A DNA stretch of 64,000 bases, from contig BCKZ01000010.1 in the NCBI GenBank assembly GCA_001600815.1, forward strand, positions 141,527 through 205,526, in the 5' to 3' direction. Below are positions 1,836 to 43,400 of the stretch, in pieces; position 1 is the first letter of the stretch, and each line of letters opens with the position of its first letter. Position numbers and translations under genes: made by a program. The stretch is from Alloascoidea hylecoeti (lineage: Eukaryota). The notes under the pieces were generated by a model that saw nothing but the letters and a program-made list of their open reading frames with translations, did no database searches and was not told the origin of the DNA.

Positions 1836-4298
1836 ATGGTATACACTGATGCATTGATTTTATGAAAAAAGCTTTAATATATAAAAGTATAACTTTTTAA
1901 CCCCAAGTATGGATTTGGAGGCCAATATTTTGATGTTAATCAACTAATTTCTAGTCTCATTTATAAATTGACCATGAAATGAAATTGGGATGATTCCAGG
2001 ATTAAGAAAATTATTTTGAGATTTATTGTTGACTATGCTTTTCTCTCATACTTTAAATAATTAAATGATAATCTATATATATGAAATATAAAGAAATTAA
2101 AAAATATAGTTATAATGGTATACGATTCATTTTAAGTTGTATAATTAGCTAAATCCGTATTAAGATTTTACTGTACGACTTATATTTAAAATTTTAGACT
2201 TACTTTAGCTTGCAATTGGAATCACTAATTGTTTTCTAGATCGATCCCCATATAGTTATTGAGTGAAGTTACACATGGATAATTTCTAATAGTGTTTCTT
2301 AAAAAATTTGGGATCTTTAATAAATACTTTGAAATTTGATATATCATAGTTCAATTCGAGTTCATTCCATAATTGGTGAAGTCCATAAATCATCTGGAAT
2401 AATTTCATTGTGAAGTCAGGAGCAAGTGGAAGTTCAAATGATAAATGAAATTGAAAGCGATTCGTTCAATATATCACAAAATAGGGAATTTATAAATTGA
2501 ACAGTTAACATTAAAACAAAATTTTAGTCCAAATCAAATCGTATCAATGATCAAGGTAATTGCACCTTTTCCTGATCCAATATTATGTTGTTCGAGATTG
2601 ATAACAGGTCTTGCGGAGGTTATGTAACAATTTCAATTGTACCTCCAATTTCGAATATCATAATGACCACAGGGAGGTTATGTGGTATATTCATTGACGT
2701 TTATCTATAGCCCCAAATTAGCTAACATAGTGGAGAACCACAAACTACAGCGCTCACTACGTAATTGGACTTATATCATCATATTATAGGACCAACAGCA
2801 GTATTACTGATTCAGTTAAATCGGAGACAACCTATAACACATTTTTCTAAAAATTATTATACTCCAATAAGTATGGTTTTTATTTAAATGTCCCTATTAT
2901 TAAAAACAAAAGGAAGTTCTTCACCATATCCATATGCTCTAATAATACTAACACGAATTCTCGACAACTTGTATATTCAACTCATGATCACCGAGATGTA
3001 GAAATGCTGTAAATATGGCTGAAAGTTATGTTCATTATATATCTGTGATGGAAGTTATATATCTATCATTTGTTGTCTGTTTTTGTATTGTTTAATTAAT
3101 GTTATAACTTACAGCATATTTGAGAAGTCTTTGAAAATGGTGAATTATGCGAAGCTGCATATACCTATCTTTACTACGTATTCCACTTGGTGAGCGACAC
3201 CAAAGACTTCCAAAATCTATAAAAATAACTGCTAGATTCTTACGTGCCCCATTAAAGATGTTTATATTTTGTATAGACAATAAATAATTTTGTTAAATTT
3301 TCAAAAGTGTTTTAGTGCATATCTGTTGTTGTTGGTGAATACATATTGGTTTTCAGTGTTATTGGTATATGAATACCGATATAGCTCTTATTTAGTCTAA
3401 AAGAACACACTTCCTTAAGCTTGTGTTTTTTCTTCTAAAATTTAATTTATAGTATAAACTTTATATGGATCTTTTTAATGAAACCTGTTGAAACCCAGAT
3501 GTTTAAATCTGAGATATAATGGTGATACAATACTATATTTTTTAAATTATTTTCCACTTTAAATCTACCCCCATGTAGGTTCAACTTTGCAATCATTAAT
3601 TCTTCAGAACTTATTTTCTAGATAAGACTTATAGAAATCAGCACTGACACTTGAAATAACCAAAACTATCTTTAGATCTGAACTTATTTCACCTATACAA
3701 TCTCGGAAAAGGGTCAATTACTAACCTATATTTATTGCAAGATTCACGACATAAATGGTTTTGGATCATAAGATCTAGAATTATATATTCTCCAAAAATC
3801 CAGTATATGCATTTAAATACTCTCATTTTTCTATAGTTATACGTGTACTGGTATGAATAACTGATATAATTATCTGTACATGTTATTAATTAATTGTACC
3901 TGTGAACTGAGGATTACATTAATCATATGAAGTTAATTGAGGAAATGAAATTAAAGAACGTTAATAATCAACCAAACCAGATGTATGCCATTCACATTAT
4001 AACAACCCATTAACAATTACCCGAGTCTAAACTGGACTGAATAAAAAACATCAAATTAAAAAAATCAAGACATTTCAAAAGTCAAATTCGTTAGATATAC
4101 CTACATGTACGTAAGTTATATATATTAAGCACCATGATTATTTATAATCAAACATTAGTTATGAATATAATCAGGGATGCCCTATAAAAAAAGCAACAAC
4201 ATAAAGGTTAAAAATGGATATATATATATAGATATTAGTGTATGAATGTTCCTAATACTTGTAATAGAACAATTCCACATCACCAAATCAGTATTTTA

Positions 4299-6131: not shown

Positions 6132-7643
6132 TAATATATCGACCTATAGGTACAGATACTATAATTGAAAAAGTGATCCTACAATATTGAAAAGATACGT
6201 CCAAACAGGAGATCAGAAGGCTGTTATATATGAAAAATTTAAAAAGGGAAGGCTATTAATTTTTTCAAAATTAAAATATGCATAAATCTTTACCCATATT
6301 TGGGTCGAGGATATTATTAACAGAACCTGCAGGATTTATAACCAATCGGAGGGAAATATTATATCCCTGCTTTTATCCCACATGGTATATTAAAAATATC
6401 CATTATTTTTGTTTGAATCATAATTTCGATGGACTATAATCATTGCTACTCTACACAGTTATATATCCAATTGCAATATACTACAATATACATGAGGTAA
6501 AACATAATTATAAGAATCAGTGTTCATCAGAAACAATTTACCGGTGTAATTGTTTAAATTTCATTTAAGATAAGATTCTCTCCTGACCAAAAGTCACACT
6601 TTGGCTTTTCGAAAATAAATGACAAGCATATGCACACGACGATGTTTTCGGAGCCGTGTGCAATTTGCCGAGGAGAAATATAAACTCATTTATCATATTA
6701 AAATATAATTATAATCTTTAATGCTTATATGAAGAGATAACAGGAATTATATAATATATAGCTAACTACATGGTTTTATATATCTAAATTGAATTTAGAC
6801 TTTTCAAATGATTCTTTTTAATTTCTCTCTTTTAGTAACAATTGCAATAATTAATCCCTATAATTATATATGTGCTATCGATATCAATGAACACAAAACT
6901 TTTAACAGCTAGAGAGTTTGAAATCAATGATTTAAATGAAAATGAAACTTTAACAAGTAAAGCCAAAAAAAAATATAACCCAATTTTGCTTCACACTAAT
7001 CACAGTAACTGAATTCGAAGGTTGCTGCTTATGACTTACATGCTTAAATTTGGAATGCAACCTTTAAATTTAGATTTGGCACCAGGGTTATTATCTAGAA
7101 CTCCGCATTTATAATTTATACATAATACATGAGCTTGTGATAAAAATGTAACTGAACATCAATTAATAATAACAGTGCTGAATCTGCTGAGATATCATTA
7201 ATTACAAGAGAACTTTTAAGCGCTATGTATCGGATTAATGTCGCACGCATAGCTGCAGGTTGCATCCGTATTACATAATCCTTTGATGAACATTAATAAT
7301 CCTAAGATTAAAAATCATCTCGATTTATTTATTTGCAATTGGCATAAAATAATTATACAGAATCTGGGTATACTCTGAATTAATTATATAACATTATAAC
7401 TTCTTATCTTTACCAACGGGTTGATTATCGTACGGCTTTTTCAATCATTAATATTGCAGCTGATAAGGTAAAAATAAATGGCCCAGGTTTCTTCCAAAGT
7501 TCCAATGCATTTATGTTAAGATTTTATACTATTATAAACAACGGTACTCTTGGAAGTCTTGGCTGGTATTAATTATAATACTGATATATTGATTGCAATA
7601 TTTACAATTAAAGAAACTCGCGCGAGATCGATGCAAATATGTA

Positions 7644-7796
7644 CAGTCGAGACCCTGATTATTGCCCGATTTGAAGACAGAACAATTAGACTAAATAGTA
7701 AATATACAATATATGAATGGTATACTTAATATTTATCTACGAAACATTTTGACTTCGATTCAACTATATATCAAACCAAAATTAGTGCCTCGACTG
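7644..7796. mobile_element. Putative non-autonomous Tc1/mariner-type MITE, 153 bp, with TA target-site duplication
   Basis: Reads TA|CAGTCGAGACCCTGATTATTGCCCGA ... TCAAACCAAAATTAGTGCCTCGACTG|TA. The terminal 8 bp are a perfect inverted repeat and 18 of 26 positions match. TA lies at 7642-7643 and 7797-7798. Confidence 0.55.
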
Positions 7797-8043
7797 TACA
7801 AAATCTTATATAAGGGTACAACTTTCCATTTTTCTAAACTACCTATTGGATATGCTATCGATTCGATATCTATTTCAATAAAAATTACAAATTTTAAGTT
7901 AACTAGCTTTTTCTGGGGTTATATGATCTACAACAGTTATTTTATTACCAGTACTTCAAAGTTACTTCATAATACATATACTTAGGTTAATTAAAGAAGA
8001 AGGTGGCCAAAAGGTGGACGAATATATATTAAGTTCAAAGAGC

Positions 8044-8069
8044 GGCCGAAATTAAGTGGAAACACTGTA
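8044..8069. repeat. Dispersed 26-bp repeat, copy 1; resembles a Tc1/mariner right terminus (CACTG-TA)
   Basis: GGCCGAAATTAAGTGGAAACACTGTA, 25/26 identical to 62193-62218. Confidence 0.6.
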
Positions 8070-9109
8070 TATCAGCTATCTACCGAAGTCTGCAACCGGT
8101 TTAATAACATATAACTTTCTCCGAGGAGTAATAGTGTTGAGATGTGTGTATATATACTGTTAAATAGATTATATATGTGTATGCAAAATTCTTAAACAGC
8201 AAAAAAAGAGAAAAAAACATAACTTTAAGATATTTTCATTTCTACCTGCTTTTTCTTGTTGCGTATAATGTTAGCGATTTTGTTTGGTATTTGAAATAAG
8301 CGCTCGAAGTAGTGCGCGTGCTATTCAAGAAATCGAATATAAAATCACATCCCGCAAGTTATCAGCAATTATTATAAAAATAGTGATGAGCTATATAAGT
8401 TATAGCCAACTGTGTCAATCACAGCAGAAACGAATACATAATACATTAGTAATATATAAATATTAATAAACTCAATTCCAAGATAATCTAAATTCATTAA
8501 CTTTATAAAGACTAAGGGAAGAGCAAGAAATCCATATTCTATCTACTCCAATTATAAATTCATATTCTTTATAATATAATGTAATCACTACTTCGCATTC
8601 TGCCTGTTGAGAATTTGTAGTCCTCCAATAGACTTCCCAGCACGGTTCCCAGAATATTAAGAAATTCCACTTTTTCTGATTTATTTCTGAAATTATATAC
8701 CCTATAAAGAGCCATAACATTGGCTGATCAACCTACATAGATTGGTGCTACTTGCTGATAGAATACTGCTTCTCATCAAAACAAAAAAAAAAGCTTTATA
8801 AGGTTACATGTAGATACAGGATTCCTCAAGGATTATAATTATAAGGGTATGGTAGAACGAAAGTTGGCCTAGATTAATGAATCCTCTTCTACAACTTCTC
8901 GTGATTGTCCAGTATAGGCAGTTGCAACGTGTATATTGTGATAATGATAATTGATAAGCTCAATTGGCGATTTTCTGACTGTGGTTATCTTGGAGGTTAT
9001 GAGGTTATATCGTAAACGGTCTGGAACTCCGTTATGTTGCTAAATCAATACAACACGTGATATGAACATTTTATACAAAACCACCTTCTTCATCTTTTTT
9101 CAACAGGGT

Positions 9110-9565
9110 ATGATGGATGAAAATGAGGCGAAAGCCCCAAATGGCCCCCTCCCCAGCATAGATTGGAATGCTCATAGAAGTAGTATCACGGGTGGAAAAT
9201 CAACTCAGAATCCGGATAAAGGTAATATGATTGTGGAAACTGAAACTGTTTCCGTGGTGCCTTCCCTTTCCGTGACCACACAACCAGAAGATGATGAACA
9301 GCAAACCTTTCTACCCCCTGTTCCAACCAACCCAGGCACTTCCAGCACTGTTCCACAAGTCAAAAGTATGAAATCTCGCAGTACACGTCCGTCACGGGTG
9401 GAGCTATTTGCGGCTAAAGTTGCTTCTGCAGTGAATGACGGATCAGACGAGGATGAGAAATTTGTCTACGAGGAACCACATACTACAAAATCGACCCGTA
9501 GCCCTTCGATTGTCTCCTCACAGTCACAACACGCTGCTACAAGTTCTAATATACCACAACCACAG

Positions 9566-9600
<35 letters not shown>

Positions 9601-11206
9601 ACAACCGCAACAACAGCAGTTACCTTTGTACTCCCGCAAGATTCGCAAAAAAGGTGTGAGCGACAATGAATCTCTCCAATCGCACTCCAGGCAGCAATCA
9701 AATGTCACACTGGATACGACAACAGACGATCAACATTTAATCAAAAACACCAATGGTTCGGAACAAAATAATAGGAAAATATCTTATAGACAGCCTGGAA
9801 GAGCTCCTACGCAAAATCTTTACTTCTACAAGGATCAGCCTCAGCATTCTAATAATGGCAATCTCAACAATATTATTTCTAATACTTCTAACAGTCATAA
9901 TGCACTACCGATCAACAGCCGTCCACTAAGAACAACGGCATCTAGATTTTTTGATCCTAGTGGTGCTCGACACCCACGTCGATACGTTACAATAACTGAT
10001 TCGGATTGTGACTATGATTATGACGTTGATGTTGATGATCTAGATGATTATGGGTATAGCGAAACAACACCACTACGACATGCTATATCCTCAAATGCAA
10101 TACGAAATGGGAAACCAAACACACGCCAAAGAGTTCATTCGATGAGTTATTTAAAGTCCAAGAAAAGAGGGAAATCTTCCAAGTTACCAGTTGTTTATTC
10201 ACCGAACCATCCTGTAGCTAATAATCATAATCACAACTATTTATACCATGGTCACCAACTACAGCAATCACCTACCCCGGTCCAATATATGACATCTTCT
10301 CCCCCAGATTTAAATTCTCCGTATTCTCCTTCTTACAACCCTATATCGCAGAAACCATCCTCAAGATATCATGTCATTCGTTTATTAATATATTTTCTCA
10401 TAACATCTATTCTTATTCTTTCCTTTGGGTTTGTCCTTGGATTTTTGTTAGCAACATCCAAAGAACTTCAACGATTAAAGGTGACTTCAATTTCCGACGT
10501 TTTGGTATCTGAGGATGAACTGGTTTTTGATATAGTCGTTGAAGCAGTAAATCCAGGATTTTTAAGCGTTACTATTGACGAAGGGGACATTGATGTTTTT
10601 GCAAAAACAAAATATCTTCATTCAGGAAAAGGATCTGATGATCTGGAATCTGTTCATACGACATCTCATTCAGAAGCACATTCATATATTTCATCCTCCG
10701 AGGCACATGCACTATCCGAACAACTAGTAGAGGAAACAATTCTCCTTGGACATATCACAAAATTCGACTTGCCTTTAAACTTTGAAGGAGGCTTTTTTAA
10801 TAAGAAACAATTGAAAAGCATTGGTGGTGTTAAGCTCGTACATCCTGGCTACAATACTACGACGCCTGGAGATGGAGATGGAGATAAAGATGATACTCCC
10901 GAAAAAGAACCTGATAAACCTGATAATGATGACGGAGGTGATAAAGATGAAAAAAATGGGGCCAATGGAGATTTGCCAAATGGGCATAAGGATGATGGGA
11001 CTCAAACACCTCATTTTCAATCGCCATATAGAATAACCCTTGCGAAAGATGATCCTGGTCATTTGAAATGGCTAAAACTATCACATCATCCTTTTGATTT
11101 AATAATTAGAGGTGTCCTAAAGTACAAATTGCCTTTATCCAGTGAGAAAAGGATAGCTAGTGTTTCTAAGCAGGTGCCTGTAGACACTGGTGAAGGTGAT
11201 GATTGA
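9110..11206 (+). CDS. VAC7: Vacuolar segregation protein Vac7 (PI(3,5)P2 regulator)
   Basis: Motifs RVELFAAKVASAV..SDEDEKFVYE, RPLRTTASRFFD and YSETTPLR; a single TM helix followed by DVLVSEDELVFDIVVEAVNP, ETILLGHI and HPFDLIIRGVLKYKLPL. The start is more likely 9110 than 9062. Confidence 0.9.
9563..9619 (+). repeat. CAG/CAA microsatellite encoding poly-Q in VAC7
   Basis: Mixed CAG/CAA run with one CCG interruption. Confidence 0.9.
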
Positions 11207-11873
11207 CTAGTATAATTAATAACAAACGGCTAAACCCTGGATATATGAAATTGCTAACGAAGTGGCTATAATTAATATTTTTTTTTTATTTTTATTTTTT
11301 TATTTTTTATTTTTTTATTTTTTCTTTCTATTTATTAAAATATAGCAATATACGGTACATATAGTAATAATAATAATAAATTAATTATAAATGGATTAAC
11401 ATTAATTTATTAAAAAAAACTGCGGATAAAAAGGAATAAAAATGATGATTGATGTTTGCTAATCAATTTATGTTTATGTTTTAAGTTTTAGCTATAATCA
11501 TTCAATATTCAATTGCAATAATAAATCTAAAAGAGGAGATGCTGTATATAATCAAACAATAAAAGCTTTAAATTTTAATTTAATTTGAATATTTATTAAT
11601 ACATACTGTAGGTATAACTGGTTATATTCGTAACATTACATATCATCATGATGGGTTGAAGAACTGCTTTAATCAATCGATTATATTAGTACACTTTCAA
11701 TATTTATTTACTCTACTATAATTACATGTTTCATTTCTAACTATATTGTAGTAGTGTAGTTGTTGAGTCTGAGTTTCATTTGGGTTTACCAGCTTCAAAT
11801 CTGAGTTAGTTAAAGTTGAAAATTCAATATTAATGCACAATTAACTATCCCATGTGTTGATGTATATTGAATA

Positions 11874-13613
11874 TTAATCATTTTCTTCCAAGTTCTCTTC
11901 ATTTTCGTTTATAAGTTTTCTTTTCTTGGATGCTTCAATCATTTCACTTCGCTTTTTTCTTTTGTTCTTAATTACTCGAGGAACAGTGCTAATTCTTTTT
12001 CTATCGATCTGTGATTTCTTAAAATTCTTTTTATCGTTTTTAGATAACTTCTTCATATCCAACATCCATTCTCCAAATCCTTTGGAACCAGATTCTTTCA
12101 TGACATTAACTACATTCTTTACAAGGTCCATATCATCCTTGGTATAAAATGTAACGGCTTTTCCTTTTCTTCCAGCACGACCAGTACGCCCAATTCTATG
12201 GACATAAGCCTGTGAAGATTGTGGGACATCATAGTTGATTACTAGATTAATACCCTTGAAATCAATACCACGAGCTAAAACATCGGTACAAATAAGTACC
12301 CATATATCACCATTACGAAATCTTTCAATGATTTGATCTCTCTGTCGTTGCGTTCTATCTGCATTGATAACATCAATGTTAAGTTTGTCATACATTAACT
12401 CGTGAAATAAAGCTTTTGATCTCTCAACTGATTGGACGAATATTAAAACAGGAGGTTTAAATTCACCTTCTTGGATCATCTGACGAACAGCTATTAGTTT
12501 ACCTTGTTCTGTACCACAGTATGTTAGTTTTTGTTCAATACTATCATTAGCTGCTTCTTTGTGACCAATAATAACACGAACAGGCCAATGCATTATTGAA
12601 TTTGCCAATTGCTCAACTCCAGAGTGTATCGTAGCCGAAAAAAGAGATTTCTTTAATGTTGGTAGAGTACATGATGCTAATATATTATCAGTTTGTTCTA
12701 AAAAGCCTTGCTCAAATAACTTATCTGCTTCATCAAAGATAAGTCGTTCAACTGTTGCTAAACTAACCAATTCTTCTTTTATAGAATCCACCAAACGTAA
12801 TGGAGTACTAATCAGAATATCATACTTGTTTATCAAGAAGTTAGTATGCCTTAATTTATTGATAGTTGTTTTGTCTAGGATAGCAACTTTAAGATCTTTC
12901 CCTTTAGTTAATTTAACACATTCATTAAATATTTGAGTTGCCAATTCTTTTGTTGGGGAAATAACTAATCCACGAATTCCATGATTCTTCTTATGTTCAT
13001 TTAACAGCTGAATCAATGGAATGACAAATGCTAGGGTTTTACCGGAACCTGTTGGAGCACATGCAATTAATTCTCTATTATGTAATAAAATAGGAATAGC
13101 TTCGGATTGAATTGGTGTAGGGTCTTGAAAGTTTTGTGATTTGAGATTAACCAACAATTTCCTATCAAAATCGAAACGTGTGATTAAGTCATTGAACGAA
13201 CCAACAGGGAGTGGAATATCATCTCCTGTGAGGTTAGCTTTATAGGATTTTCTAAGAATTCTAGCATCCTCTTTATTTGCGATTATTGGAGGGGGTATTT
13301 CCTCTTCTTCCTCTTCATCTTCTATCTGCTGCTTTTCAGCTATCTTTTTTATGGAATTTTCATCAGAGTTCTTTTTTGATTTGAAAAAGTCTGTTTCTTT
13401 CTTTATTTGTACTATCAGTTTCTCGTCTTCAATATTGAGTTTTTTTTGTCGGGACTAGTATTAATAAAGAGTTAGAATCATACACTTTATAATATATAAT
13501 TATCAGCTAAATATAAGAGATGCTGGACTTACAGTAGACGAGGGAAAATCCGAGGATTCGTCCTTATTTTTCTTGATGGAGGCACCAAATGATAATAGTC
13601 GAAAATAATCCAT
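11874..13613 (-). CDS. ROK1: DEAD-box RNA helicase Rok1 (DDX52), 2 exons, 553 aa
   Basis: Exon 1 is 13613-13533 ([15 protein letters not shown]...). Intron 13532-13455 has GTAAGT..TTCTAAC..TAG, phase 0. Exon 2 is 13454-11874. Motifs [15 protein letters not shown] and HRIGRTGR, plus Rok1-like [11 protein letters not shown] and [10 protein letters not shown]. Confidence 0.93.
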
Positions 13614-19627: not shown

Positions 19628-22292
19628 ATGACAAAAGAAACAACTACGGAAACTGTCTCTAACTGGTTCTTTAGACAGGCTGGCACTAAACGGTGGAGCC
19701 AAGTTGCAAATCCTCGTTCTAGTGTTTCGGAGATTTTTCCTGAATTGATTGCAGCTAAAAAAATCTCAAATCCATTTAATGATATGAATGAAAAAGATGT
19801 TCAATGGGTAGGTGAAACGGATTGGGAATACAAAGGAACATTTTTTATATCAGATGATCTAAAACAAAGTGGGGAAAGAATTGAGATGATTATAGAAGGT
19901 CTTGATACATATGCAGATGTTTATATTAATGAATCTGAGAAACCAGTTCTACAAAATGATAACATGTTTCATATCCATACAATTGATATACTTCCTTTAA
20001 TTCAAAAGGGGGAGAATGAAATCCGTATTGTTTTTAAGAGTGCTTTATTGAAGGGCCGGGAACTTTATAAAGAAAGTGGTAGAAAGTTTGAGTCTTGGAA
20101 TGGTGATCCAAGTAGGGTTTTTGTGCGAAAAGCTCAGTATCATTATGGCTGGGATTGGGGTAAGCTTATAATATTAACTATAACGTGCAATCTTATGCAT
20201 TATATCAGCTGGGATCTAACCTTTTATTATAGGTCCAATATTGATGACCTGTGGTCCTTTCAGACCAATATACATTAAACAATACTATTCGAGAATTGAG
20301 GATATTTTCATTAAAACTAATGTTGCACCTTCATTCGAAGAAGCTGAGGTCTCAGTTCAGGTTGAATCAATTACAACTAAAAATTTGGAAATCGAAAAGC
20401 TACAATTACAAGTTGAGATATTTTACCGCAATCTATCAACTAGCGAAGCTAATTATGAAGATCGACTAATAGAAAAGAAATTGGTGCCATTAAATAAAGA
20501 GGAGATTACAAATGTCATATTTTCATTAAAAAGTCCACGGCTTTGGTATCCTCACACACACGGTATACCACATCTATATAAAACAAAAGTGACAATGAAA
20601 AAAGGAGATAAAATATTAGACCAATGGTCGAAGAGTTTTGGAATCAGAAAGGTAGAACTCATAGAAGAGCCTCTTTTAGGTCAGGAAGGTGCTTCTTTCT
20701 ACTTCAAAATTAATGGTGTACCAATATTTGCAAAAGGTTCAAACTGGATTCCAGCTCATAACTTCATTACACAATTACCGGATTCACACTATACAACTCT
20801 TCTTCTCATGGCTATAGAAGGAAATCAAAACATGGTTCGCGTTTGGGGTGGTGGCTTATTCGAGCAAGATATATTTTATGAAGAATGTGATAGATTAGGA
20901 ATAATGGTATGGCAAGATTTTTTATTTGCCTGTGCACAATACCCAGTTCATGAAAGCTATAAAAAGACAATTAAAAAGGAAGTAAATGATCAATTAAAAC
21001 GGTTAAGAAATTATTGCAGTATCGTAATTTATGCTGGAAATAATGAGGATTATACTGTAGCAGAATCCTTACAAAAGGATTCATCTAAAAGTTTATCACC
21101 AGAACTATACGCCAAAGAAATTTATGAAGAGTTATTACCGAGATTAGTTGCCAGTCTTACCCCTTCTGTACCATATCATTGTGGAAGTCCATATGGTGGG
21201 AAAAATTCACAGGATCCTACTGTTGGTGATATCCATCAATGGAATGTATGGCATGGAACACAAGAGAAATATCAGAATTGGGCAAAATTAAGTGGACGCT
21301 TTATTAGTGAGTTTGGTATGCTTGCATTACCAAATAAAAAAACATGTTTGGAGTTTACTTCTGATAAATCGCAATTATATCCACAAAGTGAAATGTTTGA
21401 TTGGCATAATAAAGCTGATGGATCTGAGCGAAGATTAGCTCTATATGTTATGGAAAATTTCAAGGTTGGGACAATGGACTTGGACTCATGGATTTATATT
21501 ACGCAATTAATGCAATCTGAATGTCTCAGTTATGCGTATAGAGCTTGGAGGCGTAATTGGAAAGGAAACAATAAAAGATACACGGGTGGTTGCCTTGTTT
21601 GGCAATTAGATGATTGTTGGCCAGTTACCAGTTGGGCTATTATTGATTTTTATAAAAGGCCAAAATTGGCATACTATGGTATTAAGAGGGAATGCAAACC
21701 AATTCAATTGGGGATTGCAAGATATGAAATTCCAAATGATTTCGATGATTATTATCATGGAAAAAGATATGCTATTGATATTTGGGGTGTTAATGATACG
21801 TTGAAAATGGTCGAAGGAGAATTAAATATACAAATATATAATGTTGAGACCGGAGAGCAAGTGATTGTTTTACCAAATGAGCGGGTGCGACTTGGTGCAA
21901 ATAAGGTAACCGAACTTCGTGAAAAGATTTCTATTCCAGTTCCTCTAAACACTAATTCTTCACCTCATAATCATTATGCTATTTATGCCACTTTCACAGA
22001 TCTCCGAAAAAAGAAGGAAATTGCATGTACTAGTGATTGGCCTCAACCACTGAAATATTGTAGTTTCTCTAATAGGAAAGTCAGTGTCAAATACATTGGG
22101 AATAATTCAGTATTAGTTCAAGCAGATAAGCCGGTAAAGGGGGTATATCTTGAAGCGAACCGCGAGAGTATCAGGTTTGATGATAATGGGTTTGATGTTT
22201 TTCCTGGAAAAAATAAGGTTGTTTACGCAAAATGGCTTAATGAATCAGACAATCTTAAGGTTAAGTTCTATGGGTCTGATGAGCAAAGTTAA
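19628..22292 (+). CDS. Beta-mannosidase, glycoside hydrolase family 2, 2 exons, 863 aa
   Basis: Intron 20160-20232 (GTAAGC..ATCTAAC..TAG) restores RKAQYHYGWDWGP. Other motifs: KGSNWIP, NMVRVWGGG, WQDFLFAC, GNNE, RFISEFG and WQLDDCWP. No signal peptide seen. Confidence 0.92.
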
Positions 22293-32483: not shown

Positions 32484-35400
32484 ATGCTACGCCTAACCTC
32501 CAACCCAAACAGACCGAACAGAACAGGGCTGTCTTCTCTGCTGCAAAACATCCCTGAGGTCTCCTTCTCAAAGCAGCTGGAAAACATCATCTCCGTCTCC
32601 GCTACGTCCCACCTGAAGTCCAATAATGCCGACTCCTTCATCTTCGCCGACTTCCTCAAGACAAACCAGGGCTTGCCTCCTTCTTTCGAAATCATCCTCA
32701 CCGACCAGACCTTAAAGGACCTCGAGCAGCTCGCCGTGGAAATACATAACCACTTAAAGAATACAAGCGACATCTTATCTCAGGTGCCTGTGATAGATGA
32801 CATCGAATGGGTTTTTGAAGGTCGCTCAAAAGTATTATCAATAGCTTCCGATATCGATAAGTCTGGTATTGTAATGTGGAAAATGATGTCTTTATTAGAA
32901 CATGGTAAAAGACAATCTTATCAGAGAGATTTATTCTTTTCGGTATTACATGAAATTAAATATTCTGTTGAAGATTGGCATCAAGTTAATAAAACCACAA
33001 AAGATTTAAGATTTAAAATCGATGTTTCCTCTGCTTGGATCGAATTTTTATATAACGTTTTACAAGATGTTGACTCAACTATATCGAAATGTGAAGATGA
33101 ATTATTTCAAGTACTGGAAAATAGATTACGTGTTACTCCTGCATTATCCGAATTCGTATCTTCTTTAAATGATAAATCAAATTCAAATTTACATTCTAAT
33201 TTAAATGATAATGAATTCGATAATTCTGATAATGAAAGAAAACTTGACAGATTATTAGAATTTTTAACTTATTCTGAATTAGATAAAATGGTAAAATATA
33301 ATAATGATAATTATATCATACCAACTTTTAATTCAACTGAAAGAACTTTTAATGAAAGTTTTATTGAATTAATAACAAGATTAGACCCTTTAAAAGCAAG
33401 TATTGATTTTTTACCAATTCCTTTAAATTATTTTTTCAATTCTGCAACTGAAATTTTCCCAAATTCAATAAGTACTTTAAATCAAAGATTAATGGAAGTT
33501 GATGAACATTGGTCTTTACTTCAAAAAGATGTAAAAGATTTAGAAACTGATTTAGTTATTAATAAGTGGGAAACAATATTTATATTTATTTTGGATCAAT
33601 TACAATTTATATTAAATCAGTTTGAAAAAAAATATAATCAAACTGAATCACCACAATCACCATTAAAAACAAAAGATTCACAAGATAATCTTTCAATTTT
33701 ACATCATTCTCATTCATTATTAAGTTTAAAATCAATTAAAACAACAAGCTCAAGAACAAAATCTCCAATAGATTCATCATTTTCAATAAATACAACAACA
33801 ACTACAAATATTAATAATATTAATAAAAATAATAAAATATTTATTGAAAAAAAATTAAGATTAGTTGAAAAAACTCAACAAGAATCATCAAATATTTCAA
33901 AAAGATTTCAACAAACAATGAAAATTTTAAAATATTGTCTTTATTCAAGAAAATTAATTCCAAATGAATTAGACATTTTAAAACCTTATAGAGATAAATT
34001 TGAATTAATTATAATTAAAGCAAAAGAATTAAAATTAGAAGAAAATGAAAATATAAAATTATCATTTTTATGGAAACATCATAGATTACAATTACAATCA
34101 CAAGATCAAGATCAAATCAATCAAATTGATTATGATGATGAAATTGATGATAATGATGATTCAATGGATAGTTATTCAACTTCAAATTCAATCTTTCATT
34201 CAAAATCTGATTCAATTGAAACTACTACAAGTACTGACTCAAGTCCACATGATGAAAATACTTATTCAAATGATCGATTAAAAATTAGAAGAAGAGCTGT
34301 TGGTTCATTATTAATGAGTAAAATAAATGATTTAATAATACCGGATACTGGTGTTCCTTTACAACAACAAAACATTTTAGATGAAATCTCTGATATTGAT
34401 GATAATGATAATAAAAGTGAATATACTGTTAGAAGTTCTCGTTCTTTTTTTACTTTTGAACAATCAACTTCAAATCCAAATCCAAATCCAAAACAGAATA
34501 ATAATTATAAACCATACTTATCAAAAGAAGTAAATGATACAAATTTATCATTATCATCAACTGCTTTTAAAGATTCTGAATTTTGTGATGATACTGAAAC
34601 AAATACTCATGCACAATGTTTAAGTAATAATAATAAAATTAAAAGAAAACCAAGTAATTTATCATTAATTTCAATTGGTATAAATGAAAATGATAAAGAA
34701 GAATTTGAATCAAGAAGACCTTCTTATTCTCAACAAAAAAATTCTTCAACTTCATCTACAAATCCAATTGGTTCTCCATATGGTGGATTAAGTAGTTTAG
34801 CACAAGCAAGGATACCTTCAAATAGAAGTATTAATTATTTAAATTCAAATACAAATTTAAGTTCAAGTTCAAGTTCAAGTTCAAGTTCAAATTCTATTTC
34901 AAATTCAACTACATCTTCACAACCATTACCATTACCTAAACAATTTCAACAACCTCAAAGGAAATTATCAGAACCAACAGATATAAATAAAAAATCAAAT
35001 CATAATAATAATAATAAACCTCAACTACAATCTCCATTAAAAAATAATTTTATAATTCCAAATAATTTTAATAAATCAAAAAATGATAATGATATAGATA
35101 TAATAACAGAATTTGAAAATATTAAAAATCATGAAATTCAATCAATAACTGAATTTACTTCAAATTTATCAGTTAGGAGATCAGTTGCTCCACCACCTCC
35201 ATTATTTATGAAACTTCAACCAATTAATTCAAATAATGGACCACAAAATGTAGGTCCAAAACCAAGTATAAAAGATATTCAAAATTCAAAAACAAATAAT
35301 AACAATATTCAACAACAACAACATCAAAAGGAATATACTCATAATAATTCTTCATCATCAAAATCTATAAGATCATCAGTTATAAATAAATCTCCATATG

Positions 35401-35942
35401 AGTTAAAACATAATATATCTCATAAATCTTCATTATTATCATTATCTAGACATAATAATAATAATTCAAATTCAAAAAGAGATTCAATTTTTAGTTCAAA
35501 ATCAAAATCTGCCTCAAATTTAAATTTAAGTTCACCAGCTTCAACATCAATATCACCAAAAAGTACAATAATTAATTCAAATTATAATAGTACTAATAAT
35601 TCGCCAAAAGATTCTCAACCAAATATGAAACAAACAAAATATATTAATAATAGAGATTCATATTCAAGTGATCATTCATTAACACCACCATCTATTCATT
35701 CAATTTCATCATCTTCAAGATTTAATAAATCTTTAAGTCGTAGATCTTCTGTTTTATTTAATATGAAATCAAAATTTAGTAAACATGGATCAGTTGCTTC
35801 TTTAGAATCTGATTTAATTACACCTGTTGAAGAAAAGAATGAAATTGAAAATAATGATAATTTTGATAAAAATATGCCAAGGAGTGAAAAACCAAAATCT
35901 GTACATAGAAGGAAAAGTATCATATCAATGTTTATGAAATAA
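32484..35942 (+). CDS. KAR9: Karyogamy/spindle-orientation protein Kar9, with a long N/S-rich tail
   Basis: KAR9-domain motif IPTFNSTE...RLDPLKASIDFLP..LNYF, followed by WSLLQKDVKDLETDLVINKWETIF. Confidence 0.78.
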   Translation: MLRLTSNPNRPNRTGLSSLLQNIPEVSFSKQLENIISVSATSHLKSNNADSFIFADFLKTNQGLPPSFEIILTDQTLKDLEQLAVEIHNHLKNTSDILSQVPVIDDIEWVFEGRSKVLSIASDIDKSGIVMWKMMSLLEHGKRQSYQRDLFFSVLHEIKYSVEDWHQVNKTTKDLRFKIDVSSAWIEFLYNVLQDVDSTISKCEDELFQVLENRLRVTPALSEFVSSLNDKSNSNLHSNLNDNEFDNSDNERKLDRLLEFLTYSELDKMVKYNNDNYIIPTFNSTERTFNESFIELITRLDPLKASIDFLPIPLNYFFNSATEIFPNSISTLNQRLMEVDEHWSLLQKDVKDLETDLVINKWETIFIFILDQLQFILNQFEKKYNQTESPQSPLKTKDSQDNLSILHHSHSLLSLKSIKTTSSRTKSPIDSSFSINTTTTTNINNINKNNKIFIEKKLRLVEKTQQESSNISKRFQQTMKILKYCLYSRKLIPNELDILKPYRDKFELIIIKAKELKLEENENIKLSFLWKHHRLQLQSQDQDQINQIDYDDEIDDNDDSMDSYSTSNSIFHSKSDSIETTTSTDSSPHDENTYSNDRLKIRRRAVGSLLMSKINDLIIPDTGVPLQQQNILDEISDIDDNDNKSEYTVRSSRSFFTFEQSTSNPNPNPKQNNNYKPYLSKEVNDTNLSLSSTAFKDSEFCDDTETNTHAQCLSNNNKIKRKPSNLSLISIGINENDKEEFESRRPSYSQQKNSSTSSTNPIGSPYGGLSSLAQARIPSNRSINYLNSNTNLSSSSSSSSSSNSISNSTTSSQPLPLPKQFQQPQRKLSEPTDINKKSNHNNNNKPQLQSPLKNNFIIPNNFNKSKNDNDIDIITEFENIKNHEIQSITEFTSNLSVRRSVAPPPPLFMKLQPINSNNGPQNVGPKPSIKDIQNSKTNNNNIQQQQHQKEYTHNNSSSSKSIRSSVINKSPYELKHNISHKSSLLSLSRHNNNNSNSKRDSIFSSKSKSASNLNLSSPASTSISPKSTIINSNYNSTNNSPKDSQPNMKQTKYINNRDSYSSDHSLTPPSIHSISSSSRFNKSLSRRSSVLFNMKSKFSKHGSVASLESDLITPVEEKNEIENNDNFDKNMPRSEKPKSVHRRKSIISMFMK

Positions 35943-36060
35943 AAAAAATAATAAAAAACATTTTATAATTTATGATATTTTGTTTATGAAAAGAACACTT
36001 AAACTTATACGGATTGGATTTAACACACACAATAGAAAAAACAACAAATATTTCTAATGA

Positions 36061-36121
36061 AACTTTTTCTAAAACTTTCTAAAACTTTCTAAAACTTTTT
36101 TTTTTTTTTTTTTTTTTTTTT
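36061..36121 (+). repeat. Short (AAAACTTTCT) tandem repeat running into a poly-T tract
   Basis: The 10-bp unit repeats about 3 times and is followed by a T run at 36096-36121. Confidence 0.8.
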
Positions 36122-36719
36122 CATTTACACTTTACTTTCTATTGATATTTATATTATTATTATTTGTAGTTATTGTTCAATAACTAGTTACCTTCTTATT
36201 AAACCCTGTCTGTCTGTTTCTTTATCTTATTTATGCTTTCTCCTATTCGATTTGTTTGTTTTATGTTTTGTTCTGTTTGTTTTGATATGTTTCTTTTAAC
36301 ATCTATTTATTGACCACACACACACAACTATAACGATTGTTCTACCGATTCCAAATTCCAATTTAAGTTCAAATTCAAAAAATCAAATTTTTAGTGTTTT
36401 GTTTTGTTTTAGTTTTCACTTTTCATCTTATCTTGTTTATATATTTTGGATAATAACTTTTTATGTTTATTTATTATCGTTATTTTGCATCTTGATCGAT
36501 TTAGTAAATATGTAAGTAAAAGCTTACCGGTAGGTATTATCTTATTATCTCTACATAGTATAAAATATAAAGGGGTATTTATCTAGAAGAATATAATACT
36601 TGTAAGCTTTTTCAATATAATCATGAATGATTATAAGAGAGTGTAGTTCATTGGCAATGATTCTCAAAGTTTACGTATAAAATATTATTACCTTATGGTA
36701 TAAGTTTGCATATCCATAC

Positions 36720-37881
36720 GCAGTTAGGAAGTTTCCTTTCCTTAACAATTTCGAAATTCAGATCATGCCTGATCCATCTTGGAATAGTAGAAGTTTTCCA
36801 GATATTCTGAAAACGAGATTAAATTTTGTTTAACATTAGAACCATATTTAAAGCAAGTGGATGATTCTTTAATATTCTTGATATGCTTGAAATTCTTTAA
36901 CACTTAATTCTGATTTTGATTTTCCACTTGCTTTTAGTAATATATCAACACCAGTATTAATACCTGGATTACCAATATGAATATAAGTTACACGATCACG
37001 AACTTGATTAATCACAAGTTGGAATAATGTTGTCTAATGAAAATTGCCTTTGGGATATTATCTTCAACATCACTTTTATTTCCAAAAAGCCAATCTTTTA
37101 CTGACACCGATTTATCTCGAGAATCATCATTGATTTTTAGTTTTCCGTTTTCATTGACAAGCCATGGTATTCCAAACTTCTTGCCACTTCAACGTATTTA
37201 TCTGTATTTACCATAGTAGGTAATTATTCTTTCTAACGTAGCCCTTATACTACTAGCCTTCAAGGTTTTGATATCATGAGCATCTATCCAAAAAATACTA
37301 TCGTATATTCTTGCAGACCTAAAATCATATTATAAAGCAATTTGAGTTTTTCCGATACCACCTCTGCCTTTTAAAATAATTTCAGATCTACCAGTTGTTT
37401 CAATTAATGAGGGAGATATCTGATCTAAAATTTCTTCTCTTCCTGAAAATTTCTTATTTCTTGAACGTGAAACAATACTTCCAACTTTAAAATCGTCATC
37501 CCATGGGATATCCTTTAATGCATCAGCTTCTTTTTACCGATCATCTATAAATTTTATGAATTCTCAGTATGTTTAGCAAGATCATCTTCCATGTCTGTTA
37601 AATATTTTCTATCCCTATCCCATTTTGTCTGTTTTACCAATTTTGGTGCCTTTAATTTAAAATCAGCATCGTCGCTTACGTATGGGTCCAAATTTGCACC
37701 ACAATAAAATTGAAATAATATATTTGCTCATGGCATTCGCGTTTCTATTAGCATTAATAAATTTATGGCCATTCTTGTATCATCTTTATAAAGATTATCA
37801 ATTTTTGTTATATATTTTTTCAAACGATAAGAACCATCTCTAGTAGTCTAAGGAGATCAATTGTTGCAACCCCCATGACAT
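36720..37881 (-). pseudogene. Decayed NB-ARC (STAND/NLR-like) gene
   Basis: Manual minus-strand translation gives SRSRNKKFSGREEILDQI..IILKGRGGIGKTQIAL*YDFRSARIYDSIFWIDA..VKDWL, then in shifted frames LDNIIPTCD, VDILLKASG, LKNHPLALNM and ISFSEYLENF. There are several stops and frameshifts. Confidence 0.8.
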
Positions 37882-38672
37882 TCTATATTAATGATCGAAT
37901 AAATACAAGTAAATGTTTATGGAGAAATGAATGAAAAACTCTCCAGTGATGGAAACCGTAGTCTTTTTATATTCTTATATACTACCCTAAAACTAACCGA
38001 GTTTTTAAACAATCTTGCGATGTATCGAGAATTTTATCGGAGTAATAGGCTGGCTGTAATTAATTTTAATCTTCTATGAGTTGATTCTGTAGATTGATAT
38101 TTTTATTTGCCTGTAAGGTTGCCTGTTTTATAAGAGATCCCAGATATCCTAGAATTAACATGCTAATTTGAATAAGTTATAGCCTATACTTGTTGGAATT
38201 CAATGTAACAGTTTTATAGGAATCGTACTAATATACATGTATTGGAGTCTTCGTGATCAGTAATTACTGTTAAAGTTCAAAGTGCCTGTTCTCCCAGTTG
38301 CGCCAAAAAGCCAATCGACTCTTTAGTGAACTGTTCTAAGAGTGTAATATATATCCCACAATTACAGTTGTAACTTCCGTGATTACCTTTGAAGATCAAC
38401 ATCTGAGGTTAAAACTAGGGAAAGATTGTGAAGATAAATCATCTAATTAATTATAAGCTTCTTTGTTTTTCTTTTTAAGACATCTCACTACAATGTCGTC
38501 ACACCAAGTAAATATTACACTGGCCAGTGGCCACCACTTTGCATAGATTGCAATATCCAGCACTGATTTTACTATGCTCACCTTAATATCCACAAGCTCA
38601 ACAAAATGAAATCACCCTTTATTATTTTCTATATATTAAATGAATGCATGTACTATGAAGTAGTTTATATAA

Positions 38673-39967
38673 TTAGAAAGGATATGCCTCTTTCTCTGTT
38701 TCAGCAGTATAACCCATCTTTTCTTGTTCTTCCTTCTTCATCTGTAGATAGTTAACTAATGTCTCTCCATATGTATCAAATCCTTTATATGCTCGAACAT
38801 CACCATCCCAATGATTGATACCGTCTAATAGTCTACCTGCCACATATGGTTCATTACCAATCTGAGTAATAGGTAAGAAATATGTTCGAATAGTGAATAC
38901 AATAGCTCCACTCTTAGGTAATCTTCTCAATGATTGTCTTTCTGATCTAAAGTATATTTTGTTGATATCAGTTGCTATATCAGATGCTGCCCATCCAACA
39001 ACATTATCTTCATCTCCAATTGATTTAGACCAAGCTATATCATCATCATTTTGAATAAAATAATTGTTTCGCACTACTGGCTTATCAGGTCTAAGTTTAA
39101 TGAAAAATTTAGCCATACCATTATGAAGTTTTTCTTGATATTTTGGAACATCCCCAGAGGTATGAATGTCAGCCATTGGCATGTTTAATTTATCTTTGAG
39201 ACGCCAAAAACCAGCCAAAGCAATGGCACCAGCTTTTAAGTAATATACTCCATCTTCACCTTCTGGTAATACAGCAAGATCATCTTGAACGAACTTAGCA
39301 GCCATACCCATAGGATCTTCCTTTAATGGTCGTTCAAAAATATTAAAAGATTCACCAGTAAATAAATTGTCCATACCAACATCAGTTCTTTTAAATAGAG
39401 TTGGATATCTATCTGGTAAGTAATCACGGAAACATTCTAATAATTCACAAGCAGCATCAAATGCCGATGGATCAGTATGAACTAATTCATCATATTTTTC
39501 TTCGAATCTTTCAAGCTTTCGTTGATGATATTTTGGCCATTCATTATCAAGTTCGATCCAGTTATTCCAATCCATACTTCGGATACCCATCGTGACAAAA
39601 TAATTATGTTTGAATGGTCGATATGGTAATGGTTTGGTAGTATTGATATCCCAGTCTTGACAAGGGACTGGCTGGGGTGCTTTGAAATCTTCAGGAACCC
39701 AATCTAAATTAAATCATGATAAGTGTTAGTTTTCTCTGTTAACTTTAATGATACTATGAATATTCTTTGCTTACGTCCATATTTTCTTTTCTTGTTGTTA
39801 GCTAGCTTCTCAGGTAAAGGTTTGATCTTCTTGTCTTTGGTTCCTTCAATGTATCCAGATGTCTTGACAGCTAATCCTGTTAATAATACACCAGCGGTGA
39901 TCAGAAAGTAAGCAAGCTCTTTTTGATACTTGAAGTCAGAAGATGATAACGTCTGAATTATAGCCAT
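38673..39967 (-). CDS. DUF3445 (HRQ-family / heme-dependent oxidative N-demethylase alpha-subunit-like) protein, 2 exons, 407 aa
   Basis: Exon 1 is 39967-39775 (N-terminal TM segment). Intron 39774-39704 has GTAAGC..AACTAAC..TAG. Motifs KPLPYRPFK, MGIRSMDWNNWIELD, VQDDL, IHTSGDVP, RNNY and RSERQSLRRLPKSGAIVFTIRTYF. Confidence 0.85.
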
Positions 39968-40488: not shown

Positions 40489-43400
40489 CTAAAATAACCC
40501 TTCTATTTCACCTTTTTCATTAACTTCGACATCCATAAAACCAGAGTGCGTTGGTAATCCTGGAATTGTCATGATTTCTGCAGCAAGAGCATACAAATAT
40601 CCTGCACCAATTGAAGCTCTAACATCTCTAATTGGAACTGTGAATCCTGTTGGCACTCCCTTTAAAGTAGGATCATGAGAAAGAGAATATTGTGTTTTTG
40701 CAATGCAAACGGGCAATTTATCAAATCCTTGTGCAGTATATGTTTTGATCTTATTTTTGGCCAATTCGCTTAGTTCAATACCGGCCCCACCATACATTTT
40801 TTGAACAATTGTATTTAATTTATCTTCTAGTGATCCTTCCAAGGAGTAAAGAAGATCGACATTATGGCTCTTATTATCTTTAACAGCTTTTATAACCCCT
40901 TTAGCAAGATCAATAGCACCTTCACCACCACGAGCCCAATGGTCACTAGGAATAGCATCAACAGCACCTGCTAGTAATGACTCTTCTTTAATTGCAGCTA
41001 TTTCGGCTTCTGTGTCGGTTTCAAACTTATTAATAGCAACCACTACTGGAACTCCATATGCTCTAGCATTAGAAATTTGTTTTGCTAAATTGGCACAACC
41101 TTTGCGAACAATATCAACATTTTCCGTTTGATATATTTCAGGTAATGCCTGACCAGGCTTAACATCTGGAGCGCCACCATGCAGTTTCAATGCTCTAACC
41201 GTAGCAACAATGACAACAGCATTGGGCTTAAGTCCACTATTTCTACACTTAATGTTGAAAAATCTTTCACCCCCCATTGTGAAATCGAATCCTGCTTCGG
41301 TAACAACGAAACCTGCCTTTTCATCATGGTCTTCGTGTTCTGATGTACCAGCTAACTTCAAAGCAATTCTATCGGCAATAACAGACGAAGCGCCAATGGA
41401 AATATTAGCAAAAGGTCCAGCATGAACAAAAACAGGGGTGCCTTCAAGAGTTTGCATGAGATTTGGTTTAATAGCATCCTTAAGTAAGGCAGTCAATGCA
41501 CCAGCAGCACCAATATCGTCACAAGTAACTGGTTCTCCAGTATTACTAGAAGCAACTACAATACGACCAATTCTTCCTCTCATATCCTTCAAGTCTTTAG
41601 AAAGCGCCAATATAGCCATACATTCACTAGCCACACTAATATCAAATCCCGTAGCTCTAGTATGCTCTTTTTCAGTTGGAGCCTGTCCAATAGTGATCTG
41701 TCTTAAGTGACGATCATTAACATCAACCACTCTCTTCCATGTAATTGTCTCTGGATCTATATCCAATCTTGCAAATCTTGATATTTCTTCTGGTGTAAGA
41801 TCATCTGGATTAGTCTTGTTAATTCCCAATTTATCTAATCTAACTAACATTCCAGGGGAAAATTTTCGGATACCTTTTTTCGATGGTACCAATCTTTTAT
41901 ATAGAGCAGCATCCTTTTGACTTCTTTCATGGAACATTCGTGTATCTATTGCAGCTGCCAAAAGATTTGTAGCAGCAGAAATAGCATGTATATCACCGGT
42001 GAGATGTAGATTAAACTCATCCATTGGGATGACTTGTGCATAACCGCCGCCAGCAGCTCCTCCCTTCACACCGAATGTTGGTCCCATGCTAGGTTGACGA
42101 ACATTGGCAATAGAGAAACGTCCTAAATGTGCTCCAAGAGCTTGAACAAGACCAACAGTGGTTGTAGATTTACCTTCTCCTAGAGGTGTTGGAGTGATTC
42201 CAGCAACTAAGATGTAATTTCCATCTTTTCTATGTTTTAAACGATTATAAACATCTAAGGATACCTTTGCTTTATAATGACCATACTGCTCCAGTTCACC
42301 TTCAGAAATGCCTAATTCTGAAGCAACCTGTGTAATTTTCTTGGGAGTTTGAGCTCTAGAAATATCGATATCCGATGGTACCGGGGTTTCTAGTTTTAAA
42401 GGAAGAGGTGAAATATTTCGTGCGCCCTCTGTTTCTTGAAATCTTTTAGCAGAATCAACGACATTTTTAACTAACATGGCCACCGTCATAGGCCCAACCC
42501 CACCAGGAACAGGAGTGATTTTGCTTGCAACTTTAACAGCAGAGTCAAAGTCAACATCACCAACGAGTTTTTGCCCCGATTTCTTGGTGGAATCAGGAAT
42601 ATAATTTATACCAACGTCAATGACGACACAACCTTGCTTAAGCCATTCACCCTTAACAAAATTCGGGCTTCCAATTCCAGCGATGAGTATATCAGCTTTA
42701 CCGATAATGTCAATCATCTGTTCAGTATGGCTATGACACACAGTAACTGTGGCATTGGCGTTTTTTAGCAAATATGAAACTGGATTACCAACAATGTCTG
42801 AACGTCCAAGAACGACAGCACGCTTTCCTTTGATTTCTACATTGGCATGTTTTAAAAGTTCCATGACACCATTTGGTGTGCATGGGACAAACAACGGCTT
42901 TCCTCCTCGTTTAGCCAACTCACCAACGTTATACCGGCCAAACCCATCAACATCTTTTTCTTTAACGACTGCATTGGTGACATTCACTTCTGAAATAGTT
43001 TTTGGTATAGGGAGTTGAACTAAAATGCCATGAACGGATGAGTCATTGTTGAGGTTATCGATTTCATTTAATAATTCCGGCTCTGCAATTGATGTGGGAA
43101 ATTTCTTCAGTTCACAATCAATATTGGCAGCTTTTGCCGCTTTTAGTTTCATTCTCACATAGGCTGATGAATCGGATCGTTCTCCAACTTGAATTATAAC
43201 CAATTTGGGAACGAACCTTGGTTGGAATTCTTGAATTTTTGAAATTTCATTCGCAATTTCTTCACGAATTGACCTGAATCATAAAAAAAAGTGTGTCAAT
43301 ATCAAAAACTGATGAACCTTAGAATATTTGAAGATAACTTACTTGGCGATGTCTTTTCCATCGATTTTTTCGGCATTCAAAAGAGAAGTTGAAAAGTGAA

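Follow-up and report, generated by a model that had tools for sequence, protein, structure and literature searches.

A probable pseudogene of a fungal NLR-type receptor in Alloascoidea hylecoeti

A 64-kb stretch of the Alloascoidea hylecoeti genome (64,000 nucleotides of contig BCKZ01000010.1, positions 141,527 to 205,526; hereafter the window, numbered from its first letter) carries on the minus strand, at 37876-36763, what is very probably a pseudogene of a fungal NLR. The relic is flanked by a KAR9-like gene and a haem-dependent-demethylase-like gene. It keeps a start codon, a helical N-terminal domain of ~140 residues and the first 60% of the NB-ARC module, while about 40% of this nucleotide-binding oligomerisation module (NOD) and any sensor repeats are missing. 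It looks like a unitary pseudogene, processed by decay: a defunct representative of a known receptor family that has been reported absent from its subphylum, Saccharomycotina. The organism also carries at least one further copy, free of those lesions that could be checked, which is new here. The original prediction, made from the letters of the DNA, had placed such a relic at 36720..37500. Its content stood, but its span did not, as the 5′ end and the N-terminal domain reach 37876; the full extent runs from an ATG at 37876-37874 to ~36763.

Homology of the relic to fungal NLRs

The three pieces of the relic that share one frame were joined into an in-frame read-through of 37533-37015 (P0001; 173 aa, with X at 3 stops), and this peptide was scanned with HMMER against 1.84 billion representative proteins. 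The scan returned 2634 proteins at E<=1e-3, 39 of them at E<=1e-10. The best match, P0002, reached E 1.8e-25 and 59% identity; together with P0059 it is the sole close relative found (274 and 423 aa, respectively, both NCBI-sourced and both single-member clusters). When 24 of the 150 listed matches, mostly the longer ones, were in turn scanned with Pfam, NB-ARC was present at E<=1e-3 in 18 and above the Pfam cut-off in 16. HeLo was found in nine of the 24, DUF7779 and TPR_10/TPR_12 in 12 each, and a few had an alpha/beta-hydrolase or TIR N-terminus instead. It is through these homologues that the NB-ARC/NLR identity put forward in the original prediction is borne out.

The same conclusion can be reached from the side of the DNA. 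A NOD profile built from 17 full-length matches was run without filters on 3208 six-frame pieces (>=12 aa) of the window. Ranks 1-4 were taken by four adjacent minus-strand pieces, arranged in profile order, and no other piece of the window was better than E 8:

37533-37333, minus strand: profile positions 4-63, E 1e-13
37329-37201, minus strand: profile positions 65-103, E 2.3e-8
37188-37015, minus strand: profile positions 116-150, E 0.045
37033-36872, minus strand: profile positions 193-230, E 2.7

In the translated minus-strand frames of 38000-36400, all the motifs on which the prediction had been built were located where it had placed them: GRGGIGKT at 37368-37345, the TAA directly after QIAL at 37332-37330 and NHPLAL at 36866-36849, together with YDSIFWIDA, VKDWL, LDNIIPTCD, DILLKASG and ISFSEYLENF. 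Each has a counterpart in the profile consensus, which reads RNPKFCGREDIL, GMGGLGKSQIALEYAYR, YTSIFWIDA, VKKWL, LKELLPTCE, LELLLKSAG, GELPLAL and ISFSEYLERL. The Walker A signature GxxGxGK[ST] is present, with GRGGIGKT aligning to the consensus GMGGLGKS. In the ARC part, NHPLAL (against GELPLAL) is followed by ISFSEYLENF (against ISFSEYLERL) in the right order, in pieces that are insignificant alone or unscored. No counterpart in the relic was found for the consensus segments WLLVIDNLD (Walker B) and GHIIITSR (sensor 1/RNBS-B). Taken from its 5′ end, the relic consists of the following parts:

37832..37876, minus strand: start codon and first 15 codons (MGVATIDLLRLLEMV), by-eye comparison with the N-termini of P0002 and P0059, no statistics
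37557..37847, minus strand: what is left of the helical N-terminal domain (effector type), interrupted by an in-frame TGA at 37730-37728 (tblastn)
37201..37563, minus strand: linker and first NB-ARC part, with the pre-P-loop RNKKFSGREEIL, Walker A GRGGIGKT and RNBS-A YDSIFWIDA (profile, tblastn)
37015..37188, minus strand: family-specific insert (GKKFGIPWLVNENGKL ... VKDWL) with TGA 37191-89 before it (profile positions 116-150, E 0.045, rank 3 of 3208)
37002..37075, minus strand: deletion block, net 109 nt gone (Walker B strand, most of RNBS-B), seen from a second-copy contig and P0059
36872..37003, minus strand: ARC1-like segment (RDRVTYIHIG...DILLKASGKSKSEL...) ending in TAA 36871-69 (profile positions 193-230, E 2.7, rank 4 of 3208, colinear)
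36840..36887, minus strand: GLPL-like motif region (ILKNHPLALNMV), compared by eye with the family consensus GELPLAL, too short for scoring
36766..36843, minus strand: last recognisable piece (GSNVKQNLISFSEYLENFY) ending in TGA 36765-63 (profile positions 249-267 of 433, E 30 alone)

After the first 15 codons, ~28-31 codons of P0002 and P0059 are lost in the relic and the frame changes. Residues 45-132 of P0002 then align in another frame to 37838-37563 (tblastn, 41% identity, joint E 6e-44), and residues 52-145 of P0059 align likewise to the N-terminal remnant. A 1-nt loss at ~37558, where a second-copy contig has one base more, links this frame to the first NB-ARC part. That segment, with in-frame TAA codons at 37536-34, 37332-30 and 37200-198, covers profile positions 4-103 (E 1e-13 and 2.3e-8) and was also matched by seven full-length or partial NLR matches (E 1e-13 to 4e-18) when tblastn was run onto the relic with eight queries. 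The insert can be aligned with the corresponding segment of P0029, P0009, P0003, P0057, P0065 and P0059. The deletion block holds an island, SLDNIIPTCD (37040-37011), in a frame of its own and followed by TAA 37010-08, and the ARC1-like segment is matched by residues 466-509 of P0029 (tblastn). The GLPL-like region is flanked by losses of 10 nt (~36883) and 4 nt (~36839-43), both relative to a second-copy contig, and at the last piece the consensus ISFSEYLERL stands against ISFSEYLENF in the relic. No homology was found past ~36763, that is, beyond profile position 267 of 433. The prediction that no repeats follow downstream also held: neither a profile of 32 long matches nor a Pfam search of the three read-through frames of 35943-36902 detected DUF7779, TPR, ANK, WD or the missing remainder of the NOD.

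The system that the relic resembles is that of the HeLo-NB-ARC-(DUF7779)-TPR NLRs of Pezizomycotina, exemplified among the matches by proteins of Orbilia javanica (KAK6337134.1), Rhizina undulata (KAL7269006.1), Ascobolus immersus (RPA74722.1) and Dactylella cylindrospora (KAF3935759.1). The NOD is colinear from the pre-P-loop to ISFSEYLE at 30-40% identity, the 'GIPG...VKxWL' insert between RNBS-A and Walker B is common to both, and in both a helical domain lies directly upstream of the NOD. Unlike these receptors, the relic is a pseudogene from which Walker B, sensor 1, the winged-helix end and TPRs are missing, its N-terminal domain does not score as HeLo, and its host falls on the Saccharomycotina side of a tree of the ADE3 protein (see below).

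Several results weigh against assigning the relic to the NLRs. A direct Pfam search of the relic gives NB-ARC 16.1 bits (E 0.007), below the gathering score of 23.5 bits, so that the family assignment rests on transitive homology. Of the HMMER check with PF00931 proposed along with the original prediction, the direct score thus fell short, whereas the full-library scan of the reconstructed peptide was highly significant. The downstream pieces are insignificant alone (E 2.7, 30 and 38-42), and the GLPL-like piece was recognised only by eye. A sequence search of the PDB gave generic P-loop proteins only (E>=0.016), and Pfam also lists IstB_IS21 (E 0.008) and nSTAND_NTPase5 (E 0.024) on the relic, as might suit a chance resemblance or a fragment of some other P-loop family such as IstB/AAA or ArsA. 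Yet all these matches cover the P-loop only, whereas the full-library matches span 130-150 residues, including family-specific segments outside the P-loop, and we reject this explanation as vanishingly improbable. A metagenome scan with the window's 67-aa piece was set aside: it returned 80 loci of 35-55% identity with generic P-loop patterns, and these included neither the organism's relic nor its second copy.

For the N-terminal domain, the data support a putative four-helix-bundle domain of effector type in the position of HeLo. In an AlphaFold model of P0002, based on a 4-row alignment, residues 1-142 are predicted to form a four-helix bundle (predicted local distance difference test score, pLDDT, 55-82), with the NB-ARC part at pLDDT under 50. 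Structural superposition with VIA-align matches the bundle to those of plant CC-NLRs and MLKL-type executioners, namely Rx CC (4m70), Sw-5b (7x8u), AtMLKL3 (6ka4), MLKL (4btf) and NRG1.1 (7l7v), at Z 8.7-10.9 and a root-mean-square deviation of 2.7-3.2 Å over 98-128 residues, although Z under ~13 is unspecific for helical bundles, GCP4, Sla2 and talin score equally, and the likeness was seen in structure only. With the plant CC-NLRs the relic family also shares the order of bundle and NB-ARC. In a language-model atlas, the first match of whole P0059 was a cluster in which 100% of members have HeLo and 92% have NB-ARC (score 0.93, 188 shared features), and P0002 residues 1-150 had no usable match. 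By Pfam, HeLo profile or hhalign, the domain could not be shown to be a HeLo domain proper. Pfam found no family at E<=10 on the N-terminal domain of P0002 or the window piece, and a HeLo (PF14479) profile from nine matches scored -3.9 bits on this domain, which is not significant. An hhalign comparison gave a probability of 6.5% over 35 columns, corresponding to the equivalent last helix before the NOD. Foldseek had no match at E<=0.001 for the bundle model, and no close counterpart of the domain outside P0002 and P0059 turned up in the atlas or Pfam.

Decay of the locus and its better-preserved copy

As far as its sequence goes, the relic cannot make a receptor, because it has at least five in-frame stops and five frame-changing indels and has lost Walker B and sensor 1. 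The stops are TGA 37730-28, TAA 37536-34, TAA 37332-30, TAA 37200-198 and TGA 37191-89, with further ones at the frame junctions (37010-08, 36871-69 and 36821-19). The frame changes, likewise at least five, lie at ~37835, ~37558, within 37075-37002, at ~36883 and at ~36840. The deletion of Walker B, suspected in the original prediction, is confirmed by a second-copy contig that has 181 letters between 37002 and 37075 against the window's 72, and by P0059, which keeps the equivalents of Walker B and RNBS-B. At the deletion block P0059 has ~36 more residues, including WLLILNN and GHIIITT, and thereby shows that the lost 109 nt held the strand equivalent to Walker B and the segment equivalent to RNBS-B.

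The lesions recur unchanged across sequencing runs and are therefore not assembly errors. Public runs were compared with window 36300-38300, and contigs with 0 differences to the window cover 36300-38293 in three runs from three studies; each of these runs is flagged as a possible source, so that at most two are independent. A fourth run, which stems from the second of two wood-decay metagenome samples, has an identical 240-nt contig that covers 36936-37175 and spans the deletion block. This identity across three studies also bears on the idea that the locus is a working gene whose stops and frameshifts stem from introns, recoding or sequencing error. Such an idea could draw on the introns or upstream exons that the neighbouring ADE3 and demethylase-like genes seem to have, and on the annotation of the relative P0002 as a protein. 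However, stops replace conserved motif residues (in QIAL-stop-Y, the stop occupies a position at which both the consensus and the second copy show Glu), the locus physically lacks Walker B and sensor 1, and the long neighbouring open reading frames (887-1296 aa) are intact. We therefore regard a working gene as very improbable. The one RNA run listed contains next to no words of the relic, a result that has no bearing on expression.

In the same three runs, other contigs are ~86% identical to parts of the relic. One of 404 nt covers 37279-37674 with 55 differences and 1 gap; one of 2.7-3.6 kb matches 37149-37075 and 37002-36794, with 181 letters against the window's 72 in between (net +109), and then continues for ~3 kb unlike the window; and one of 1.1-2.1 kb lies on 37959-37836, matching the 5′ end only down to 37836. 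Relative to the relic, this second copy has +1 behind 37558, net +109 between 37002 and 37075, +10 at 36883 and +4 at 36839/43. These indels fall at all four frame junctions deduced from protein homology, and their arithmetic reproduces the frame path of the window. The second copy lacks both checkable stop codons and all four checkable frameshifts. When the 40 listed substitutions and the 1-nt insertion were applied to 37310-37588, a single open frame of 93 codons resulted, with a canonical Walker A and with Gln and Glu at two TAA stops of the relic; outside 37310-37588 the list of differences may be incomplete (60 further differences were not displayed). A comparison of 80 codons between the relic and the second copy shows 12 synonymous and 18 non-synonymous differences, which gives a synonymous divergence (dS) of 0.28 and a ratio of non-synonymous to synonymous divergence (dN/dS) of 0.36. 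Such a value, from a small sample, suggests that selection acted for part of the time since the two copies split.

The second copy is neither P0002 nor P0059, and the three together place the relic in a small NLR-like family with birth-and-death turnover. Both this turnover, as proposed in the original prediction, and the copies elsewhere that it considered possible are thereby supported. The ~86%-identical contigs might instead be the other allele or a homeologue of the same locus in a heterozygous or hybrid genome, not paralogues. Their depth is close to that of the window in all three runs (0.7-1.1x for the contigs of 1.1-3.6 kb, 1.3-2.4x for that of 404 nt), and they diverge from the window exactly at its deletions, as such an explanation would have it. 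On the other hand, the window ADE3 is a single-member cluster whose next protein is 76% identical, so the neighbouring gene shows no sign of a slightly diverged second genome copy. In the flanks 36434-36768 and 37975-38242 only the window-identical contig was seen, with the proviso that diverged intergenic DNA may fall under the 80% cut-off. On balance we consider an allele or homeologue rather improbable.

Whether the second copy is still functional is a separate matter. The host may still have at least one intact, expressed NLR, composed of a four-helix-bundle executioner, NB-ARC and a sensor, with the relic a casualty of turnover; we consider this a serious possibility, though one that falls short of an even chance. 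In its favour, the second copy is open over the 93 reconstructable codons, shows none of the four checkable frameshifts, extends for >3 kb past the end of the relic and shows the dN/dS of 0.36. Weighing against it, P0002 and P0059 look truncated or degenerate, and there is no full-length close relative among the matches listed.

Relatives, host lineage and origin of the family

Both close relatives share with the relic an N-terminal domain, the start of the NOD and a composition typical of AT-rich coding, and their common N-terminal domain is 32% identical between them (E 1e-32). P0002 matches the relic with 54% identity over 37563-37228 and 41% over the N-terminal domain. Its last ~20 residues differ: they correspond to the insert region read out of frame and terminate at the point where this reading ends in the window, so P0002 was probably also called on a frameshifted gene. 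P0059 differs in having no canonical Walker A and in ending just after RNBS-B; at the acidic position of Walker B it has Asn. Judging by these features, it would be either an NLR-like protein with a dead ATPase or a further copy in decay. A tree of 124 rows covering the first half of the NOD (unrooted, 184 columns, mostly rows without organism names) unites the relic, P0002 and P0059 with 98% local support; this trio, on a long stem (0.79), stands, with 83% support, at the base of a 43-tip set containing HeLo-NB-ARC-TPR proteins. A word-based protein search with P0002 found no longer relative at E<=0.001, its near search finding only P0002 itself, and missed relatives found by HMMER.

The lineage of the host was assessed from its ADE3 protein. 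The window has a guanine-cytosine (GC) content of 32% and contains genes of KAR9, Inp1, Spa2, MCM10 and ADE3 type. The ADE3 protein (887 aa, counted from the first ATG) is without a close relative (best match 76%). Its best named matches, at 73-74%, are from Myxozyma, Dipodascopsis, Lipomyces, Kockiozyma, Nadsonia and Magnusiomyces, and Pezizomycotina reach 71-74%. We built a tree of 36 rows, the window protein and 35 others hand-picked from the top 120 matches, in which the lineages of four species were checked. The 14 Pezizomycotina fall on one side with 100% support in the Shimodaira-Hasegawa-like approximate likelihood-ratio test (SH-aLRT), and the window protein falls in the 22-row side with Lipomycetales, Nadsonia and Magnusiomyces, within a 97%-supported set together with one Nadsonia fulvescens copy and 8 proteins without names. 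This single-gene result supports the placement of the host in a deep-branching or poorly sampled part of Saccharomycotina and agrees, within its limited sampling, with the budding yeast named in the original prediction. It counts against the strength of this placement that it uses one protein and 35 chosen rows, in a set without Taphrinomycotina and later-branching yeast orders.

Did such a yeast inherit its NLR genes or acquire them? The literature agrees with the premise of the original prediction that these receptors are reported missing from Saccharomycotina: none of 38 genomes of the subphylum gave matches in 2014 (PMC4986451), an update to 882 strains describes NLRs as absent from yeast genomes (PMC10197012), NLR-less genomes are characterised as 'largely Saccharomycotina' (PMC5658179), and yeasts are reported to be without NLRs in PMC9815663. 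The statement is shared by reviews of 2017, 2022 and 2023, and our literature search, which did not extend to supplements, found no report of an NLR in Saccharomycotina. With such an absence, vertical retention would need many independent losses. One could suppose, therefore, that the family came by horizontal transfer from a filamentous ascomycete and then duplicated and decayed, instead of being passed down from the ancestor that Saccharomycotina and Pezizomycotina share. Moreover, 10 of 20 looked-up matches carry an organism name, and all 10 are from Pezizomycotina: Hyaloscypha, Rhizina (2), Orbilia, Jackrogersella, Colletotrichum, Fusarium, Kalmusia, Ascobolus and Dactylella. However, in the short, unrooted NOD tree the yeast trio is not nested within any one named class but sits on its long stem at the base of the 43-tip group. 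Identity to Pezizomycotina NLRs is only 30-40%, and the N-terminal domain is without a close counterpart beyond P0002 and P0059. The GC content of the relic (30.9%) is like that of the host (32.3%), which means that any transfer would be old. We thus hold horizontal transfer to be unlikely, if by no means far-fetched; it concerns the origin of the family only, not the identity of the relic. Overall, the sequence evidence would be compatible with an old transfer as well as with vertical retention by a deep yeast lineage.

Some further features of the locus and its host may be recorded here. Two wood-decay metagenome samples of one study (runs X1 and X5) contain window-identical relic sequence (share 0.99), which hints at the habitat. 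The ADE3-type gene (40489-43278, minus strand) and the demethylase-like gene (38673-39967, minus strand) both have conserved-looking coding sequence upstream of the first ATG, and the Pfam catalytic domain of ADE3 begins at profile position 47. This suggests 5′ introns or upstream exons in both genes and an intron-richer structure than in familiar yeasts. On the plus strand, the open reading frames 19628-20278 and 20244-22292 overlap head to tail, the second being of GH2 beta-mannosidase type with a Pfam match from residue 17, and they may be parts of one gene that an intron or a frameshift divides. The KAR9-like protein (32484-35942, plus strand; 1152 aa) is extremely rich in Asn and Ser, with long low-complexity runs, and its gene has 26% GC. 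A dispersed high-copy repeat seems to start at ~38268 (TGTT...), ~390 bp upstream of the ATG of the relic: in three runs, summed contig depth rises from 7-27 in the adjacent sequence to 4165-13508, many different contigs end at 38261-38270, and the right end of the repeat lies outside the compared stretch 36300-38300. The repeat has no second copy in the window, and Rfam found no family in 35900-38800, which covers the relic and the start of the repeat. Around the relic there are only short chance-like matches and no long flanking repeats, and the window contains no second copy of the relic.

Ancestral function and significance

The ancestral protein would have consisted of a four-helix-bundle N-terminal domain followed by the NB-ARC nucleotide-binding oligomerisation module; in its filamentous-fungal relatives, DUF7779 and TPR repeats come next. 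By homology only, it may have worked in the manner of HeLo- or CC-type NLRs: C-terminal repeats would sense a ligand, NB-ARC would oligomerise in a nucleotide-dependent way, and the oligomer would bring the N-terminal helical bundles together, leading to membrane damage and cell death. While homology and decay can be read directly from the locus, this mechanism is one that we infer.

According to the publications cited above (PMC4986451, PMC9815663, PMC10197012, PMC5658179), the absence of NLRs from yeasts has been used to argue that NLR immunity goes with multicellular, filamentous growth. Protein-based surveys would miss relics such as the one described here, and the relic family gives a yeast-specific profile for six-frame searches. 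The presence of the relic and of its better-preserved copy implies that the loss of NLRs at the base of the subphylum was incomplete, or that NLR genes can enter a yeast lineage and persist there for a time. If an intact, expressed copy does exist, it would be the first NLR-type system of regulated cell death or non-self recognition in the budding-yeast subphylum.

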